Part shown: one piece after another, positions 800 through 13,432 of the stretch
Numbering within the stretch: the first letter of the stretch is position 1
How the letters are laid out: the number at the start of each line of letters is the position of its first letter
Source: an uncultured virus (IMG/VR IMGVR_UViG_3300031140_000597)
Taxonomy: Duplodnaviria > Heunggongvirae > Uroviricota > Caudoviricetes
Virus record (IMG/VR): IMGVR_UViG_3300031140_000597
Coordinates: 55,391 to 75,390 of that record
Strand: one strand, 5' to 3'
DNA length: 20,000 nucleotides
The notes under the pieces: generated by a model
What the model saw: the letters and a program-made list of their open reading frames with translations, nothing else
Told to the model about the DNA's origin: nothing
Databases searched by the model: none
Position numbers and translations under genes: made by a program

Positions 800-875
800 T
801 CCTGAATAGCTCAGTTGGTAGAGCAGTAGACTGTTAATCTATTTGTCGTTGGTTCGAGCCCAACTTCAGGAGCCA
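800..875 (+). tRNA. tRNA-Asn(GUU)
   Basis: Full cloverleaf, acceptor TCCTGAA/TTCAGGA, anticodon loop CT-GTT-AA, TTCGA T-loop, encoded CCA. Confidence 0.96.
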
Positions 876-884
876 TTTTCATAG

Positions 885-969
885 TTAGTTTATTCCTTCT
901 TACAGGATATCCTGAGAAGATACGAAGAAAACTGATAGCATCACATCTGAAACAATGACGATGTGGTGC
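885..969 (+). ncRNA. putative two-hairpin spacer RNA
   Basis: Irregular hairpin 885-935 (CTTCT/AGAAG, CAGG/CCTG) and 10-bp hairpin GCATCACATC/GATGTGGTGC (938-969). Confidence 0.35.
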
Positions 970-975
970 GGTTGC

Positions 976-1049
976 GCCCGATTAGTTAAGTGGTATAACA
1001 ATTGCCTTGTAAGCATTAGTTGGTGGTTCGATTCCATCATTGGGCACCA
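976..1049 (+). tRNA. tRNA-Thr(UGU), copy 1 (divergent)
   Basis: Acceptor GCCCGAT/ATTGGGC, loop CT-TGT-AA, one T-T mismatch in the anticodon stem, CCA. Confidence 0.93.
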
Positions 1050-1055
1050 TTTTTT

Positions 1056-1191
1056 AAAGTAGTATTAAGTAGTTACCCTAGCGGCTCATAAGAGAGAGTC
1101 GGTTCATTGCATATAGTTACAGTTATGTGTAGTCAGCGAAATGTGCATCTGTAAGTGCATGTAGACTCGGCTAACTTCTTAATATTATTTT
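1056..1191 (+). ncRNA. putative ncRNA (element D), three-way junction with complementary loops
   Basis: 14-bp closing stem, GAGTC/GACTC stem, two hairpins whose loops TTACAG (1117-1122) and CTGTAA (1149-1154) are exact complements. Confidence 0.7.
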
Positions 1192-1192
1192 T

Positions 1193-1268
1193 GCTGACGT
1201 AGCTCACTCGGGAGAGCGCGACCCTGTCAAGGTCGAGGTAGTGGGATCGAAACCCATCGTTGGCGCCA
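1193..1268 (+). tRNA. tRNA-Asp(GUC)
   Basis: Cloverleaf, loop CT-GTC-AA, G discriminator, CCA; T-loop is ATCGAAA. Confidence 0.93.
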
Positions 1269-1315
1269 CATTTAAGATCAAATTTCTTGACCAGAAGTTT
1301 GAAACAACGTTTTAT

Positions 1316-1406
1316 AGAGAGTTGGCAGAGTGGTCGAATGCACTGGTCTTGAAAACCAGCAAGGGTTCATAGCCCTTCGAGAGTTCGAACCTCTCACTCT
1401 CTGCCA
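1316..1406 (+). tRNA. tRNA-Ser(UGA)
   Basis: Class II cloverleaf with long variable arm, loop CT-TGA-AA, G73, CCA. Confidence 0.96.
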
Positions 1407-1483
1407 TTTTAGATAGTGCTAAATAGATAGTTCGTCAGATGATGTAACTATTTTATAGGAATAAACCATGTATAATATAATTT

Positions 1484-1558
1484 GTCCCATTAGCATAATG
1501 GATAGTGCAGTGGATTTCTACTCCATAGATCAGGGTTCGACTCCTTGATGGGACACCA
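1484..1558 (+). tRNA. tRNA-Arg(UCU)
   Basis: Acceptor GTCCCAT/ATGGGAC, loop TT-TCT-AC, CCA. Confidence 0.93.
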
Positions 1559-1574
1559 ATTTTAAAGAGCGTAC

Positions 1575-1658
1575 AGTATCATCGCTTGTCAAGTAGATAC
1601 TCAGGTAACATCAGGCATAGCCCCTCATGATGTTATTAGGTGAGGGGGTGAGACAAGC
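1575..1658 (+). ncRNA. putative double-pseudoknot ncRNA (element E)
   Basis: Four perfect helices: AGTATC/GATACT, GCTTGTC/GACAAGC, TAACATCA/TGATGTTA, CCCCTCA/TGAGGGG, forming two crossings. Confidence 0.65.
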
Positions 1659-1668
1659 ACATTTTTAT

Positions 1669-1738
1669 ATCATCATTTGCCAATTGGTAAGGTTAGGCGA
1701 AGTAGTCGTTACTGGTTCGATTCCAGTTGGTGATACCA
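1669..1738 (+). ncRNA. tRNA-like RNA with truncated anticodon arm (pseudo-tRNA or tRNA mimic)
   Basis: Acceptor ATCATCA/TGGTGAT, D-arm GCC-AATTGGTAA-GGT, T-arm ACTGG-TTCGATT-CCAGT, ACCA end; only about 15 nt where anticodon arm plus variable loop normally take 21-22. Confidence 0.75.
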
Positions 1739-1745
1739 ATTTTAA

Positions 1746-1818
1746 TGCGGGATGCTAAGGTATGCACTCCGGGCTCATAACCCGCGAGGTTGAGTTTCGA
1801 TTACTCTTTCCGCTACCA
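1746..1818 (+). tRNA. initiator-type tRNA-fMet(CAU) with atypical D-arm
   Basis: Loop CT-CAT-AA, three consecutive G-C pairs in the anticodon stem (GGG/CCC), 1:72 mismatch (T-T), ACCA. Confidence 0.8.
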
Positions 1819-1823
1819 CATTA

Positions 1824-1901
1824 GGGCCTATAGCTTAGTTGGTTTAAAGCAGACGACTCATAATCGTAAGATCCTTGGTTCAAGTCCAAGTAGGCCCACC
1901 A
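1824..1901 (+). tRNA. tRNA with CAU anticodon, probably Ile2 (lysidine type)
   Basis: Cloverleaf GGGCCTA/TAGGCCC; CGACTCATAATCG anticodon arm resembles bacterial tRNA-Ile2; elongator Met not excluded. Confidence 0.85.
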
Positions 1902-1947
1902 CTATAATTTATTTTTGTATAAGATTTGTCTTATACATTTACAGAAA

Positions 1948-2040
1948 TCGCTTCTGTTATCGTGACATACAACGACAACGATAGCGTTACACTCGTAACA
2001 AATACATGTTAATTATGCGAGTTGACGATAACAGAGGCGG
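1948..2040 (+). ncRNA. putative structured ncRNA (element F)
   Basis: 16-bp closing stem 1948-1963/2025-2040, 27-nt A/C-rich asymmetric loop, inner stem ACTCGTA/TGCGAGT. Confidence 0.6.
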
Positions 2041-2048
2041 CGCTATTC

Positions 2049-2123
2049 GCGAGTATCGTATAATGGTTATTACGGGAGGTTTCCAACCTTTTGATGTCAG
2101 TTCGATTCTGACTACTCGCTCCA
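2049..2123 (+). tRNA. tRNA-Gly(UCC)
   Basis: Acceptor GCGAGTA/TACTCGC, loop TT-TCC-AA, U73, CCA. Confidence 0.95.
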
Positions 2124-2145
2124 ATATGTAAGAAGTAAAGAACAT

Positions 2146-2231
2146 GCCTTGGTGGTGGAATTAGGTATACACATCAGATTTAAAATCTGACGACTTCGGT
2201 CATGCGGGTTCAAGTCCCGCTCAAGGCACCA
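2146..2231 (+). tRNA. tRNA-Leu(UAA)
   Basis: Class II cloverleaf, loop TT-TAA-AA, variable arm GAC-TTCG-GTC, A73, CCA. Confidence 0.95.
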
Positions 2232-2253
2232 AAATTAAAATAGAAGATGTAAT

Positions 2254-2985
2254 ATGAATAGTTTGTTTGAATACACAGAAGCAGTAGAAGAGTGCAAAGG
2301 TTCGTTAGAAGGTGATGGTGATAATAAGTTATTTACCGAAGCAGAGCGTGTTCTATCTACTGAAATAAACAACGAAGAAAAGATATTAAAGCATCCGATA
2401 TTACATGAAGCGTTTGATCGCATCGTAGAGCAACATGTACCAAATCAATCAACTGCATTTTTATCATTATGCACTGCTACTCGTCCTTATAACAAGAGCA
2501 AGAAGTGGAAAGGATTCATCAACAAGTTTGGTGGTAAGGTAGATATGATAGTTGTATCTAATGGTGGTATGATGCCACAACAGTTTTGGAAAAGTTGGCC
2601 CTATTTGAATTACGATGGGGGTGATCATTATGATGTTAAAATGTATCAAGATATTATGCATGAACGATTATTGAAGTTTTTTAGGAAGCACAATTACAGT
2701 AATGTTATTGCAAACTTTAGACCTAATTTAATCAATCATCAACCAGCACATGATGCGCTTTCTATTCTGAAAGAAGAAGGTAGCATTGGTGATTATATTG
2801 TAATGCCTAATCAGGAGTTGTATGATAAGGCACAGTCATTAGGTTGGCGACCACCACAAGGTCAAGGTGATATGTTCCCTGATTTAACCAATACGATACT
2901 GAGTGCATTAACTGCTCAAGTGGAAGAATTCGGGTATGATGAAGATTTATTTACTGTTCATGAAAAATTAAAGTACAATAAGTAG
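2254..2985 (+). CDS. DUF5591-like protein (domain found in archaeosine synthase ArcS/TgtA2)
   Basis: 243 aa; FLSLCTATRPYNKSKKW resembles the C-S/T-x-x-K/R-P-Y-x-x-S motif, followed by VVSNGG..P and PY.NYD. Confidence 0.55.
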   Translation: MNSLFEYTEAVEECKGSLEGDGDNKLFTEAERVLSTEINNEEKILKHPILHEAFDRIVEQHVPNQSTAFLSLCTATRPYNKSKKWKGFINKFGGKVDMIVVSNGGMMPQQFWKSWPYLNYDGGDHYDVKMYQDIMHERLLKFFRKHNYSNVIANFRPNLINHQPAHDALSILKEEGSIGDYIVMPNQELYDKAQSLGWRPPQGQGDMFPDLTNTILSALTAQVEEFGYDEDLFTVHEKLKYNK

Positions 2986-2998
2986 GTTATTTTTATAG

Positions 2999-3012
2999 TA
3001 TAAATAATACTA
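2999..3012 (+). promoter_or_regulatory. T4-like late promoter
   Basis: Exact TATAAATA (2999-3006) followed by N4-TA, upstream of the hydrolase gene. Confidence 0.55.
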
Positions 3013-3030
3013 TAGACAGGGAGAAAGATA

Positions 3031-3705
3031 TTGTTCAAGGGAATATATAATCTTTTTAAGCAGAAAGAAGAGCCTATAGCAGAGATGATTGAAATCCCTG
3101 TTAAAAACCCAGAATTACCTCATATTGTGTTTATACACGGTGCTGGATGTAGTCATCGCAGTTGGAATTATATATTAGCAAAACTTAACCCTACCCGTTA
3201 CACTATGTTAGAGTATTCGGTAGATGATAAGTTTTATACTAATCTAAATAAACTGTCGACTATTGTTGGTCAAATACATGATAGGGATTTATTTATAATA
3301 TCTCATTCTATGGGTGGTATATATGCATTGCATTTATGTCAGAGTTTTAGTCATAGAGTAATTGGTTCAATATCTATCGCGACTCCGTTTGCGGGATCGA
3401 GAACAGCAGATTTTGTAAAATATGTATATCCATCGTATATATTGTTTCGAGATGTTGGAGTAAGAAGTGCGCCTATTATGAGGTGTCATGATATTACAAT
3501 CAATGTACCTTGGACACAGATAGTTACGACAGATGGGCATGTACCGTGGCATAAGGGTGAGAACGATGGTGTTGTGACGGTAGAAAGTCAGCGTCATCGT
3601 AAAGATATAGATTATGTAGAAATACATGTAACCCACCATGAAGCGTTGGTGAGTGATGAAGCATTAGATATTATAAAAGAAAAATTAGATATCAAAAACG
3701 CTTGA
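3031..3705 (+). CDS. alpha/beta hydrolase (esterase/lipase-like)
   Basis: HGAG oxyanion motif, SHSMGG nucleophile elbow, TPFAGS, NDGVV acid, C-terminal His; TTG start with GGGAG RBS. Confidence 0.85.
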   Translation: MFKGIYNLFKQKEEPIAEMIEIPVKNPELPHIVFIHGAGCSHRSWNYILAKLNPTRYTMLEYSVDDKFYTNLNKLSTIVGQIHDRDLFIISHSMGGIYALHLCQSFSHRVIGSISIATPFAGSRTADFVKYVYPSYILFRDVGVRSAPIMRCHDITINVPWTQIVTTDGHVPWHKGENDGVVTVESQRHRKDIDYVEIHVTHHEALVSDEALDIIKEKLDIKNA

Positions 3706-3730
3706 CAGAACACGTTACATAGTGTATAAT
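3702..3730 (+). promoter_or_regulatory. sigma70 consensus promoter for tRNA-Ala/Ala/Thr
   Basis: TTGACA (3702-3707), 17 bp, TATAAT (3725-3730). Confidence 0.85.
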
Positions 3731-3779
3731 AATTTATTAGATAAATAAAGTAGTAAGTATGAAGTGGTTACATAATCGT

Positions 3780-3855
3780 GGGGATATAGCTCAGTTGGGA
3801 GAGCGACTGCCTTGCACGCAGTAGGTCGTAGGTTCGATCCCTATTATCTCCACCA
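3780..3855 (+). tRNA. tRNA-Ala(UGC), copy 1
   Basis: Cloverleaf, loop CT-TGC-AC, G3:U70 Ala identity pair, CCA. Confidence 0.97.
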
Positions 3856-3904
3856 TTATGTGACTATTAGTCTAATAAATAAAGTAGCAAGTATGAAGTA
3901 CAAT

Positions 3905-3980
3905 GGGGATATAGCTCAGTTGGGAGAGCGACTGCCTTGCACGCAGTAGGTCGTAGGTTCGATCCCTATTATCTCCACCA
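3905..3980 (+). tRNA. tRNA-Ala(UGC), copy 2 (identical to copy 1)
   Basis: Same 76-nt sequence as 3780-3855. Confidence 0.97.
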
Positions 3981-4015
3981 TTTTAAAATTAAAGAGATAT
4001 CAAATTTCTTTAAAA

Positions 4016-4091
<76 letters not shown>

Positions 4092-4099
4092 AATAATCA

Positions 4100-4125
4100 G
4101 ACTCCCTTCGGGGAGTTTTTTGTTT
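4100..4125 (+). terminator. rho-independent terminator ending the tRNA cluster
   Basis: GACTCCC-TTCG-GGGAGTT hairpin (cUUCGg loop) followed by a T-tract. Confidence 0.9.
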
Positions 4126-4167: not shown

Positions 4168-5193
4168 ATGTATGACATTAAAACAATAGAATTGGAATTA
4201 GCAACTGTGTGCAATGCATATTGTCCCGTATGTATTCGCTATGATGCAAGAGACGAAGGTTTATTTTTAAACCCCAAAGCCAATCTTAATCAATTGATAG
4301 ATCTAGATACTATCGACAAATGTTTTAAATCAGACAAAATACCCGATGACGTAGAAGTGAGTCTAGTTGGTACTTCTGGCGATCCACTTGCTCATCCTAA
4401 AATTTTAGATATTATCAAATTGATATTACATCATAAGTCGCATGCAACATTTAATATCCATACTAATGGTGGACTTAGATCAACAAAATTATTCGCTGAA
4501 CTTGCACATATATTAGGAGATGGCGATAGGTTTTGTTTTAGTTTAGATGGGTTAGCAGATACCAACCATATATATCGAATAGGGGTTGACTTCAAGAAAG
4601 TAATATCTAATATGACTGCATTCATTGAAGCGGGCGGCACACCAATTTGGCAATTTGTGATATTTGATTGGAACAAACATCAGATAGAAGAATGTAGAAA
4701 ATATGCATTTGATTTAGGCTGTAGAGCATTTGAGTCTCGCGAAAATGTCAATCCCGGGCTTATAGATGTCGCCATCGCATCTGCAAATAAGCAGATAGTT
4801 AATGCTGTATCTCCATCGTTTTATTCTGATAGTATGGTCGAGTCTGATGATTATGATTACATAGACGATGCGTGTATTCAAGAACAAGGAATATTCATGG
4901 CACCAGATGGTAAAGTATATCCTTGTTGTATGTTCTATGCGGAACGTGCGGGTCCAGGTTCTACATTGGTGTACGATACCATGTATAAGAAGTTTGGATA
5001 TGATTGGAATGATTTAACTATATATTCACTAGATCAGATTCTAGATCATGCTTGGTGGGATGAACTACATACCAGCATAGTTAAAAGTCCATGTGTTACA
5101 TGCATCAATAACTGTGGTGCTGTTCGTGATGAACGTAGTAATTCTGACATAAACGAAAAGGCATATCAAAATATTTCAAGGACATTAATATGA
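4168..5193 (+). CDS. radical SAM protein with SPASM/twitch domain
   Basis: CNAYCPVC (CxxxCxxC), GTSGDP, HTNG, SLDG; C-terminal C..G.VYPCC..CVTCINNC. Confidence 0.9.
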   Translation: MYDIKTIELELATVCNAYCPVCIRYDARDEGLFLNPKANLNQLIDLDTIDKCFKSDKIPDDVEVSLVGTSGDPLAHPKILDIIKLILHHKSHATFNIHTNGGLRSTKLFAELAHILGDGDRFCFSLDGLADTNHIYRIGVDFKKVISNMTAFIEAGGTPIWQFVIFDWNKHQIEECRKYAFDLGCRAFESRENVNPGLIDVAIASANKQIVNAVSPSFYSDSMVESDDYDYIDDACIQEQGIFMAPDGKVYPCCMFYAERAGPGSTLVYDTMYKKFGYDWNDLTIYSLDQILDHAWWDELHTSIVKSPCVTCINNCGAVRDERSNSDINEKAYQNISRTLI

Positions 5194-8567: not shown

Positions 8568-9254
8568 ATGAGATTACATAATTTATTTGAAAACAACAAA
8601 CCAATATTAGATGAGGGTCCAAAAGATCCTCATATCTTTAAATCAGTATTTCTTGCGGGCGGACCAGGTTCTGGTAAAAGTTTTGTAGCAGGTAAATTAC
8701 TTAAAGGCGGCGGTCTTAAAGTAGTTAATTCTGATGATATTTACGAATACTTAATGAAACAGCAGAACTTAGAAATGGACCCAGAGACTATTTTTAGTCC
8801 TCAAGGTCAAGCAATTCGTGATAAAGCGAAAGGTCTAACAGGCATCCGTCAAGGCGGATTTCTAGATGGTCGTTTAGGTCTTGTTGTAGACGGAACTGGT
8901 AAAGATACTGGTAAAGTAAAAAAGGAAAGTGATAAACTACGTGATTTAGGTTATGATACGATGATGGTATTCGTTAATACTAGTTTAGAAGTAGCACAAG
9001 CGCGAAATCAAGCACGATCTAGAAAACTTGCACCAGAAGTAGTTGAGGCGATGTGGAATAAAGTTCAACAGAACATAATGAAATTCCAGCAAATCTTTGG
9101 CTCGGCGAACTTCCATGTTATTGATAATTCTGGTGGATTAGAAGACCCAGATAGAGCAGAGAATTTCGATACCGTATATAAAGAAATACAAAAGTTTATT
9201 AATACACCACCATCAAGTCATATTGCTAAAAAATGGCTAGATAATAATAAATAA
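8568..9254 (+). CDS. P-loop kinase (AAA_33/zeta-toxin-like)
   Basis: Walker A GGPGSGKS, NSDD, VVDGTG, RNQAR.R lid motif. Confidence 0.85.
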   Translation: MRLHNLFENNKPILDEGPKDPHIFKSVFLAGGPGSGKSFVAGKLLKGGGLKVVNSDDIYEYLMKQQNLEMDPETIFSPQGQAIRDKAKGLTGIRQGGFLDGRLGLVVDGTGKDTGKVKKESDKLRDLGYDTMMVFVNTSLEVAQARNQARSRKLAPEVVEAMWNKVQQNIMKFQQIFGSANFHVIDNSGGLEDPDRAENFDTVYKEIQKFINTPPSSHIAKKWLDNNK

Positions 9255-11710: not shown

Positions 11711-12936
11711 CAGAAATGTTAAAATGCGCATTTTGTCATAAGACACAAAAGCAAGTTTCTAAGTTACTTGCTGGCATAGACGAGCACATTTATATTTGTA
11801 ATAAATGTGTTCATTTGTCGCACAGCATTTTAGAGAAAGAAGATAAAACAAAAACACTCAAAGATAAGAAACGTAAGTTACGTGATATTTTTGATACTGT
11901 CCCACCTAAACAAGTCCATGAATATTTAAACGAACATGTGATTGGTCAAGAAAAAGTTAAGAAAGGAATTAGTGTAGCAATATACAATCATTGTAAGCGA
12001 ATCTTTAATGACACCACTGTAAAAGTACAAAAATCAAATGTATTACTATTGGGTCCTACAGGTGTTGGTAAAACACTTATTGCACAAACGCTAGCAAGTT
12101 CAATGGATGTGCCATTCGTCATTACAGATGCAACTACGATTACTGAAAGTGGTTATGCTGGAGATGATGCAGAAGTATTGATACATAAGTTATTCCAAAA
12201 TTCTGATTATGATATTGCACGAACCGAGATTGGTATCATCTACGTAGATGAGATAGACAAGAAAGCCAAGCGTAATGACATGGTAAGTTTAAGTCGTGAT
12301 GTATCAGGCGAAGGTGTTCAACAAAGTTTACTGAAACTCATGGAAGGCACCACCATCGCAGTACCTAATAAACATGATAGATCTCCTGAAAAAATAGATA
12401 TAAATACAGAGAACATCTTATTCATTGTGGGCGGTGCTTTTATTGGATTAGAGAAAGTAGTTGAGCAGCGTCTAGGTAAATCAAAAATAGGATTTACTGG
12501 AAAAATGGCAAGCAAAGATTATAATTGGGAAGATGAACTTGAAACGAGTGATCTAGTTCAATATGGTCTAATACCAGAATTCTTAGGAAGATTACCATCA
12601 GTTAATGTATTACATGAATTATCTAAAGATGATTTGGTGCGTGTGTTGACTGAACCGAAAAATAGTATTGTAAAGCAATATCAAGCATTATTTGAATTAG
12701 ATAATGTTAGTTTAGAATTTAAGCCATCTGCATTAAGAGCAATCGCAGAGACTTCTATTAAGCAAGATCTAGGTGCAAGGGGATTACGCAAAATAATCGA
12801 CAATGCACTCATTGATACACAATATGAATTACCCGATCTTGTAAGACAGGGCGTTCAGAAGATTATTATTAGTGAAGAAACTATAACTAGAGGAACAACA
12901 CCACACATGATCAAAGGATCCATAAGTGAAAAATAA
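11707..12936 (+). CDS. clpX: ATP-dependent Clp protease ATP-binding subunit ClpX
   Basis: C4 zinc finger (CAFC..CNKC), GPTGVGKT, YVDEIDK, RDVSGEGVQQ, IGF loop, PEFLGRLP, GARGLR. Confidence 0.97.
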   Translation: MTEMLKCAFCHKTQKQVSKLLAGIDEHIYICNKCVHLSHSILEKEDKTKTLKDKKRKLRDIFDTVPPKQVHEYLNEHVIGQEKVKKGISVAIYNHCKRIFNDTTVKVQKSNVLLLGPTGVGKTLIAQTLASSMDVPFVITDATTITESGYAGDDAEVLIHKLFQNSDYDIARTEIGIIYVDEIDKKAKRNDMVSLSRDVSGEGVQQSLLKLMEGTTIAVPNKHDRSPEKIDINTENILFIVGGAFIGLEKVVEQRLGKSKIGFTGKMASKDYNWEDELETSDLVQYGLIPEFLGRLPSVNVLHELSKDDLVRVLTEPKNSIVKQYQALFELDNVSLEFKPSALRAIAETSIKQDLGARGLRKIIDNALIDTQYELPDLVRQGVQKIIISEETITRGTTPHMIKGSISEK

Positions 12937-13432
12937 AAAACCAATGTTGATGTTTAATCAATTCATAACATTTCGTGAAGTACGTGTCAATTTTGAAGAC
13001 GGCGAAAGTAAAGTACTAAATACAGTAGAGGCATTATCTATCGCAGAAGGTAGAGGACTGGATTTGATTGTTATCAATGAAATTGCAGTTCCACCAGTAT
13101 GTAAGATTGCTGATAAAAATAAGTTTTTGTATGAACAGAAACAAAAACAAAAAGACACTGCAAAAAAGGCAAGAGCCAGTACAGTAGAACATAAAGAAAT
13201 CCGTATGGGTTTGAATATCGAAGAAAATGATATTACTGTTAAATCTAATAAGATTAAAACATTATTGGAAAAGAAATGCAGAGTTACTATTACCGTGACC
13301 TTGAAGGGTCGTGAACGAAGTAAGCAACATATAGCACGTGAACTAATCCAATCTATTGCAGATCGATTAGGTGTTGAGTTGGAATTATTCGGTGCAAGTG
13401 GTAATAGAGTTAGTGCGAAAATAAAAGGTTAA
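12926..13432 (+). CDS. infC: translation initiation factor IF-3
   Basis: EAL..A...GLDLI.I......PPVCKI.D..KF.YE, KEIR....I...D...K, GRE; GTG start with AAGGA RBS. Confidence 0.93.
   Translation: MKNKKPMLMFNQFITFREVRVNFEDGESKVLNTVEALSIAEGRGLDLIVINEIAVPPVCKIADKNKFLYEQKQKQKDTAKKARASTVEHKEIRMGLNIEENDITVKSNKIKTLLEKKCRVTITVTLKGRERSKQHIARELIQSIADRLGVELELFGASGNRVSAKIKG

Follow-up and report, generated by a model that had tools for sequence, protein, structure and literature searches.

Two consecutive pseudoknots, with compensatory substitutions in three of their four helices, among the tRNA genes of a very large marine phage

What is an 84-nt stretch with four interlocking helices doing in the middle of a phage tRNA operon, and is it a gene in its own right, a signal serving its neighbours or a relic without function? 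The question is raised by positions 1575–1658 of a 20,000-nt stretch of DNA (referred to here as the window) from an uncultured virus of the Caudoviricetes (IMG/VR record IMGVR_UViG_3300031140_000597, positions 55,391 to 75,390), which represents the final 20 kb of a 75,390-base viral contig estimated to be 21% complete. The sequencing runs containing this phage are marine, and the phage is also found in a 192 kb record; since that record is itself estimated to be only 52% complete, the phage is very large. The stretch 1575–1658 consists of two consecutive H-type pseudoknots, P1×P2 followed by P3×P4, and three of the helices, the mutually crossing P1 and P2 as well as P4, have been preserved by compensatory substitutions. 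The explanation favoured here, tentatively and at slightly less than an even chance, is that of an autonomous small non-coding RNA gene of about 95–105 nt (roughly 1565–1667), located in the tRNA operon, the product of which would be stable and act in trans.

The fold comprises 28 Watson–Crick pairs in 84 nt, arranged in four helices that share no base. These helices were re-found, at the positions given in the original prediction, both by reading the sequence and by a script that lists exhaustively all perfect helices of at least 6 bp, and the positions of the pairs yield the topology described there: P2 crosses P1, and a linker-free H-type knot of P3 and P4 is nested in P2. On the + strand, to which all coordinates refer, the 5′ strand of P1 (AGTATC, 1575–1580) pairs with its 3′ strand (GATACT, 1596–1601), and the P1 loop holds the 5′ strand of P2 (GCTTGTC, 1584–1590) between the linkers ATC (1581–1583, loop 1 of the first pseudoknot) and AAGTA (1591–1595); the partner of this P2 strand is GACAAGC at 1652–1658. 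Beyond the junction CAGG (1602–1605), which separates the two pseudoknots, the P3 5′ strand (TAACATCA, 1606–1613) forms eight perfect pairs with the P3 3′ strand (TGATGTTA, 1628–1635). The P3 loop contains loop 1 of the second knot (GGCATAG, 1614–1620) and the P4 5′ strand (CCCCTCA, 1621–1627), which abuts the P3 3′ strand with zero linker and pairs across TTAGG (1636–1640, loop 3) with TGAGGGG at 1641–1647; P3 and P4 therefore cross as well. The junction GTGA (1648–1651) precedes the P2 3′ strand, and the complete P3/P4 knot lies inside the P2 span as the long third loop of the first knot. Loop lengths permit coexistence of the helices, the P2 5′ strand being flanked by 3 and 5 nt and the second knot having loops of 7, 0 and 5 nt; the five nucleotides of TTAGG across an 8-bp stem are tight but feasible under the loop-length rules for H-type pseudoknots. 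An additional contact of 2 bp (A1581–T1649 and T1582·G1648) is conceivable, and a T>C change at 1582 in a diverged copy described below (L054) would convert the T·G wobble into C–G, which is a one-sided change in a single sequence and only a hint.

Helix density was scored as the best set of position-disjoint perfect helices, each of at least 6 bp, per 84-nt frame. By this measure no frame of the 20 kb window or of the entire 75,390-base contig exceeds the locus (28 bp in four helices), the runners-up in the window being a subset of the same locus (22) and then a score of 21 elsewhere. A score of at least 28 was reached in 2 of 300 dinucleotide-preserving shuffles of the window, a somewhat flattering figure because the frame length and the helix minimum were set after the finding had been seen. 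The fold obtained when pseudoknots are disallowed is ordinary (minimum free energy, MFE, −23.6 kcal/mol; z = −1.89; 7 of 200 shuffles equally stable). P2 is present in both the MFE and the centroid folds, accompanied in the former by P3 and in the latter by P4, which takes the place of P3. As the nested fold is unremarkable, the signal resides in the crossing helices and not in ordinary hairpin stability.

Copies of the element were sought by a metagenome scan with the pattern AACATCA-N8-CCCTCATGATGTT, which fixes 20 columns of the element, including 14 of the 16 bases of P3 (among them 1607–1613). Besides the same phage (L055), the scan yielded a 99% copy (L056) and, more diverged, L054 and L057, in which the element aligns without gaps at 91.6% and 92.6% identity, respectively. 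The sample used for covariation thus comprises three distinct sequences (window, L054 and L057) plus a variant that differs by a single base (1617 A>G), all more than 91% identical. Relative to the window, L054 carries eight changes (1575 A>G, 1576 G>A, 1582 T>C, 1600 C>T, 1601 T>C, 1617 A>T, 1621 C>T and 1647 G>A) and L057 seven (1575 A>G, 1589 T>C, 1601 T>C, 1617 A>T, 1621 C>T, 1647 G>A and 1653 A>G).

Of the ten columns that vary within 1575–1658, eight pair with one another and form four compensated pairs. Two of these pairs belong to P1, namely 1575–1601 (A–T in the window, G–C in both diverged copies) and 1576–1600 (G–C in the window, A–T in L054), one to P2 (1589–1653, T–A to C–G in L057) and one to P4 (1621–1647, C–G to T–A in both copies); each toggles between the A–U and G–C types. 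The 3′ strand of P4 was left free in the search pattern and is still complementary in the copies. Standard pairs occupy 84 of the 84 pair cells of the three sequences; loss of the helices in homologues was among the observations that the original prediction had named as telling against it, and no pair is broken in L054 or L057. Every one of the slid controls contains zero compensated pairs, and the best nested MFE structure accounts for a single compensated pair and leaves two cells broken; its helix 1600–1603/1641–1644 was rejected, being broken in L054 and L057. When ten changes were placed at random on the same three branches, at least four compensated pairs arose in 1 of 2,000,000 trials, and in 0 of 1,000,000 trials when the 20 columns fixed by the pattern were removed. 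Covariation is seen in P1 as well as in P2, and no base belongs to both; selection must therefore act either on the pseudoknot as a whole or on the two helices as states that alternate.

Outside the helices there is little change. The remaining two variable columns are unpaired, so that 2 of the 28 unpaired positions vary: 1582, in the first linker (T in the window and L057, C in L054), and 1617, the only variable base of loop GGCATAG (A in the window, T in both diverged copies and G in the single-base variant). The linker AAGTA, both junctions and the loop TTAGG are invariant in the three distinct sequences, and P3 is invariant in all copies.

The conserved block extends beyond the helices, from AAGAGCGTAC (1565–1574), which is unpaired in the model and shows no variation in its 10 columns among the window, L054 and L057, to ACATTTTTA (1659–1667), in which two of nine columns (1661 and 1662) vary, in L054. 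At these limits the shared module begins and ends, and the sequence outside differs among the three lineages. Upstream of the element lie tRNA-Arg(TCT) in the window (1484–1558, called by ARAGORN and Rfam and a neighbour in this lineage only), tRNA-Met in L054 and, in L057, 351 nt without a blastn match to the window or an ARAGORN tRNA. Downstream, where neighbouring genes are exchanged, the window has a tRNA look-alike (1669–1737), L054 a tRNA-Ser, and L057, like a contig from an RNA library, directly a tRNA(CAT)-like gene. The location between tRNA-Arg and a "tRNA mimic" that had been reported for the window was seen again with ARAGORN and Rfam. Among the contigs of four runs aligned with 1400–1900, one keeps 1565–1667, with seven differences and in different surroundings. 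Orthologous tRNA genes of the same arrays are 84.6–98.7% identical and the two alignable spacers 77.5–80%; the element is as conserved as the neighbouring tRNA genes, unpaired positions included.

BLAST and a covariance model agree on a single copy in each of the two records of the phage (75 kb and 192 kb), and a covariance-model search of a 220 kb phage revealed no copy. Being single-copy and independent of its neighbours, the element is disfavoured as a cis-acting accessory of a particular tRNA. The 5′ flank AAGAGCGTAC was also considered as a general motif of the array and rejected: it occurs exactly once in the window, and its matches with up to two mismatches are at chance level (10 against 12.35 expected).

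The genomic context points to transcription together with the tRNAs. ARAGORN identifies 11 tRNA genes in the window (800–4091), all on the + strand, and 18 in the contig; consensus promoters of the sigma-70 type occur on the same strand at 95–123, 237–265 (12 of 12 positions) and 423–451, and a canonical terminator at 4099–4118, just past the last tRNA. As promoters, co-oriented tRNAs and terminator flank it, the element lies inside a + strand tRNA operon. The RNA-library contig (498 nt) carries the element with the 1617 A>G variant and skips 1663–1739; in a second RNA run, coverage is limited to a portion of tRNA-Arg and to a tRNA-Met that is diverged.

An autonomous RNA gene would account for these features as follows. 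The strong promoters upstream would drive transcription of the element together with the tRNAs; its A/U-rich flanks would be cut by the host nucleases that also separate the tRNAs; and the released RNA, compact and stable, would act in trans by binding a protein or a small molecule via its invariant single-stranded positions. The near-invariance of the unpaired bases is equally compatible with a protein-binding site, an aptamer or a catalytic core, and none of the results favours catalysis over the other roles.

Several considerations weigh against this proposal. Release by nucleases and action in trans are suggested by the setting of the element and by what is generally known of how tRNA operons are processed. 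The fold by itself gives no strand, every pair being Watson–Crick, and the RNA runs consist of assembled contigs that provide no RNA starts, ends, strand or level, from libraries that can contain DNA. P3 has no covariation support; it is invariant, and it could not vary, being largely fixed by the search pattern. The sample is small (three distinct sequences and one single-base variant) and comes from a single phage lineage. Finally, the 192 kb record covers about half of the estimated genome, which leaves room for a second copy, and the single-copy state and the independence from neighbours make a cis role less probable but not negligible.

Searches for further homologues delimit the distribution of the element. 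An exact 27-nt core found three contigs in IMG/VR, all 100% identical over 360 nt, and the 3′ end of the look-alike used as query found the same three. With tRNA-Arg as anchor six loci were recovered, corresponding to the same phage (three), another phage (L041 and L043) and an unrelated locus (L044); in L041 and L043 the tRNA-Arg(TCT) is identical in sequence to that of the window and stands alone, with an open reading frame after it, and the element is absent. A looser core pattern matched eight loci, five of which (L047–L049, L051 and L052) are chance matches in an unrelated phage without tRNAs. A descriptor restricted to the junctions, with all helices set to N, returned only the same three IMG/VR contigs and nothing in 185,579 prokaryote species genomes, and a 5′-half descriptor likewise had 0 matches in these genomes. 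The tRNA(CAT) anchor retrieved the same phage and one unrelated GC-rich phage. Comparison by blastn with the records of 50,697 isolated phages yielded no genuine match at E up to 10, and 28 non-identical IMG/VR loci (of 30) that encode relatives, at most 56% identical, of a DUF5591 protein of the array contain neither the element nor such a tRNA array. The known distribution is narrow, one marine phage lineage, and generality is limited for now.

Known RNA families were examined with Rfam 15, using 1400–2000 (601 nt) and 1555–1672 (118 nt) as queries. No family matches the element at E up to 10, a limit that applies to all Rfam results on the element given here; the rows that fall over it (snoRNA, miRNA and IsrR models) are noise, with 11–18 bits against thresholds of 40–70. 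Among the entries listed by full-text literature searches for pseudoknotted non-coding RNAs in phage tRNA clusters, none was pertinent.

Small non-tRNA RNAs have been known in phage tRNA operons for about fifty years, the examples being RNAC (species 1, 139 nt) and RNAD (species 2, 119 nt) of phage T4. These stable RNAs, still unexplained, offer the closest analogy to the element: they too are small, lie on the tRNA strand of a phage tRNA operon and, according to the annotation of the T4 record, directly follow a tRNA-Arg, as the element does in the window, which is a likeness of context and not a sign of family membership. Both are larger than the element, and RNAC has a T-arm-like hairpin that is missing from it. 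Homology was rejected, as blastn-short found only words of 6–8 nt (E of 0.24 or worse), and no comparable set of perfect crossing helices was found in either RNA. RNAC and RNAD do not form a defined family against which membership could be judged, and their roles are described as unknown (PMC3014915). The element is placed here with the non-tRNA structured RNAs of phage tRNA operons and may yet be something categorically new.

It is improbable, yet deserves to be kept in mind, that the element founds a new class of small functional RNA, a phage RNA "gene" among tRNAs that would work either as a self-cleaving ribozyme, its fold of two joined H-type pseudoknots being without precedent, or as a pseudoknotted decoy or aptamer for a host or phage factor of the tRNA and translation machinery. 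If so, it could supply a first experimental handle on the non-tRNA stable RNAs of phage tRNA operons, from T4 onward. The element is a compact and tractable case, with less than 100 nt, compensatory change in three of its four helices, nearly invariant loops and the behaviour of an independent gene. Should it prove catalytic or ligand-binding, a new fold would be added to a short list; should it be a stable trans-acting RNA, it could reveal what such RNAs do for large phages.

A mechanical role in cis, in which the knot would stall an exoribonuclease or fix a processing point and in this way protect or delimit the transcript of the tRNA operon, is likewise unlikely without being negligible. 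The topology lends itself to it, since the 5′ strand of P1 pairs into the loop closed by P2, so that an enzyme arriving from the 5′ side would meet a helix braced by a ring; P3 and P4 are stacked without a linker. Exonuclease-resistant RNAs (xrRNAs) of RNA viruses, of the flavivirus, plant-virus and coremin types, are compact pseudoknots of tens of nucleotides with a closed ring around a 5′ segment, and to this extent they resemble the element. Their helix plan is nonetheless unlike that of the element, with which they share no sequence match, and none of the exonuclease-resistant families of Rfam matches it. A punctuation mark would moreover be expected at many spacers, whereas the element is single-copy and tied to no particular neighbour; the constraint on its unpaired bases goes beyond the needs of a mere barrier; and a stall of 5′-to-3′ decay would depend on the host having such an exonuclease.

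A self-cleaving ribozyme of a new class, helping to cut the multi-tRNA precursor as proposed for theta ribozymes, is rather doubtful. A compact double pseudoknot with nearly invariant junctions is a pattern typical of catalytic cores, and the element is situated 16 nt 3′ of a tRNA in the window, with similar spacing in L054. Its strand order, in which P1 5′, P2 5′ and P1 3′ come first and P2 3′ last, is also that of HDV, a nested double pseudoknot with the succession P1, P2, P3–L3–P3′, P1′, P1.1, P4, J4/2 and P2′. The helix order of HDV is not followed beyond this point: the element has 5 nt (1591–1595) at the position of P3/L3 and a second H-type pseudoknot where HDV has the P4 hairpin. Since only AAGTA separates P2 5′ from P1 3′, there is no P3/L3 and no P1.1, and the earlier exclusion of the HDV P3/P1.1 arrangement holds, as does that of twister and pistol. 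Neither the HDV-type covariance models of Rfam nor those of the twister, twister-sister, pistol, hatchet, hammerhead and hairpin ribozymes match the element. Most newly found structured RNAs have not turned out to be self-cleaving. In L057 no tRNA is called by ARAGORN in the 351 nt upstream of the element, and the RNA-library contig spans the element uncut, a weak argument in that this contig may be DNA or an uncleaved precursor. The precedent is provided by the theta ribozymes, which are small double-pseudoknot ribozymes of phages located beside tRNAs and are proposed to cut tRNA 3′ trailers in gut phages (PMC10879173); like them, the element is a small double-pseudoknot RNA adjoining tRNA genes of an uncultured phage. 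The catalytic C of theta ribozymes stands at the first position of J4/2 (PMC10879173), whereas the junction GTGA of the element, invariant in three sequences, contains no C.

It is very improbable that the element is a riboswitch, that is, a ligand-sensing aptamer governing read-through into the downstream initiator-like tRNA(CAT) and tRNA-Met genes. H-type pseudoknots with invariant loops are common aptamer architectures, and the preQ1-II/III and SAM-II/V aptamers, some of them from marine bacteria and phages, combine such pseudoknots with conserved loops as in the element. In addition, ACATTTTTA follows the P2 3′ strand, and in two lineages the element directly precedes the tRNA(CAT)-like gene. 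In two others, however, another gene separates them, and the genes downstream are tRNAs and not an mRNA. The element differs from the pseudoknot riboswitches in joining two pseudoknots and in lacking an expression platform: no terminator-like site was called at it, and P2, with an interior of 61 nt, would make a poor terminator. No riboswitch family of Rfam matches.

That the stretch has no function of its own, and is a decayed tRNA gene or spacer with leftover or chance helices, a signal at the DNA level or a short coding frame, is hardly tenable and is already largely refuted by covariation, since four pairs are compensated and none is broken, the conservation equals that of working tRNA genes, and a site in double-stranded DNA would not need crossing helices. 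A tRNA origin might be suspected from P2, a 7-bp stem with a tRNA-sized span of 75 nt, and from 1577–1599, where by eye about 16 of 23 bases agree with the 5′ part of the look-alike. Nevertheless, there is no Rfam tRNA match over 1575–1658 at E up to 10, and ARAGORN does not call the element itself a tRNA by default, at 80% or at lower thresholds: at 60% a "tRNA-???" at 1636–1731 overlaps only its last 23 nt, and the split "tRNA" joined at 1578–1738 when introns are allowed at 80% was rejected because it requires the look-alike, which two lineages lack. No tmRNA was called by ARAGORN in the window, or in 1540–1830 at a threshold of 70%. A protein frame from the ATG at 1627 was rejected as well: the changes at 1647 and 1653 would be synonymous in it, but a ribosome-binding site is missing and its length differs among the three lineages (13, 35 or 43 codons).

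The surroundings of the element include other unusual sequences. The look-alike, which lies outside the element, scores 26.4 bits with the Rfam tRNA model, below the 29-bit threshold, and has a truncated anticodon arm (12 nt where 17 are needed). It belongs to a lineage-specific insertion of 77 nt (1663–1739) that is absent from L057 and from the RNA-library contig and is replaced by the tRNA-Ser in L054; in another contig (run X14, record 9) it stands directly 3′ of a different tRNA. The tRNA(CAT)-like gene (1746–1818) scores 20.6 bits and is missed by ARAGORN at default settings and by the Rfam threshold; at 80% ARAGORN reports it as tRNA-Met. It shows a T·T mismatch atop the acceptor stem and a weak D arm, and the lowest three pairs of its anticodon stem are G–C; these features are hallmarks of an initiator tRNA. 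Its identity is 89.0% in L054 and 93.2% in L057, and in L054 the T stem GAGT/ACTC has become GAGG/CCTC.

Repeated units precede the tRNA array. One of 60 nt is present three times (68–127, 210–269 and 396–455), each time with a near-consensus sigma-70 promoter (11–12 of 12 positions). Another, of 71 nt, occurs downstream of the promoter at 423–451 and before the first tRNA, in two copies (476–546 and 635–705) that are 76% identical, share GTGCTGAA..TTGAAGGGAATCGCT and have no Rfam match at E up to 1; these units may be further non-coding RNA modules. Within the array, the inter-tRNA spacers 1050–1192 and 1902–2048 are 80.0% and 77.5% identical in L054, and the second of them holds the next-best helix cluster of the window (1916–1983, 21 bp in three helices).

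A gene for a protein of 243 aa (2254–2985) is also located within the tRNA array. Its relatives carry the Pfam domain PF17884 (DUF5591), and it has 33 homologues at E up to 0.001, one relative being named "predicted RNA-binding protein" by one source; relatives at 59–94% are encoded on ENA and Logan contigs. Other genes of the neighbourhood encode two radical-SAM proteins (4168–5193 and 19374 to the end of the window), a polynucleotide-kinase-like ATPase (8568–9254) and a protein resembling a translation initiation factor (12926–13432).

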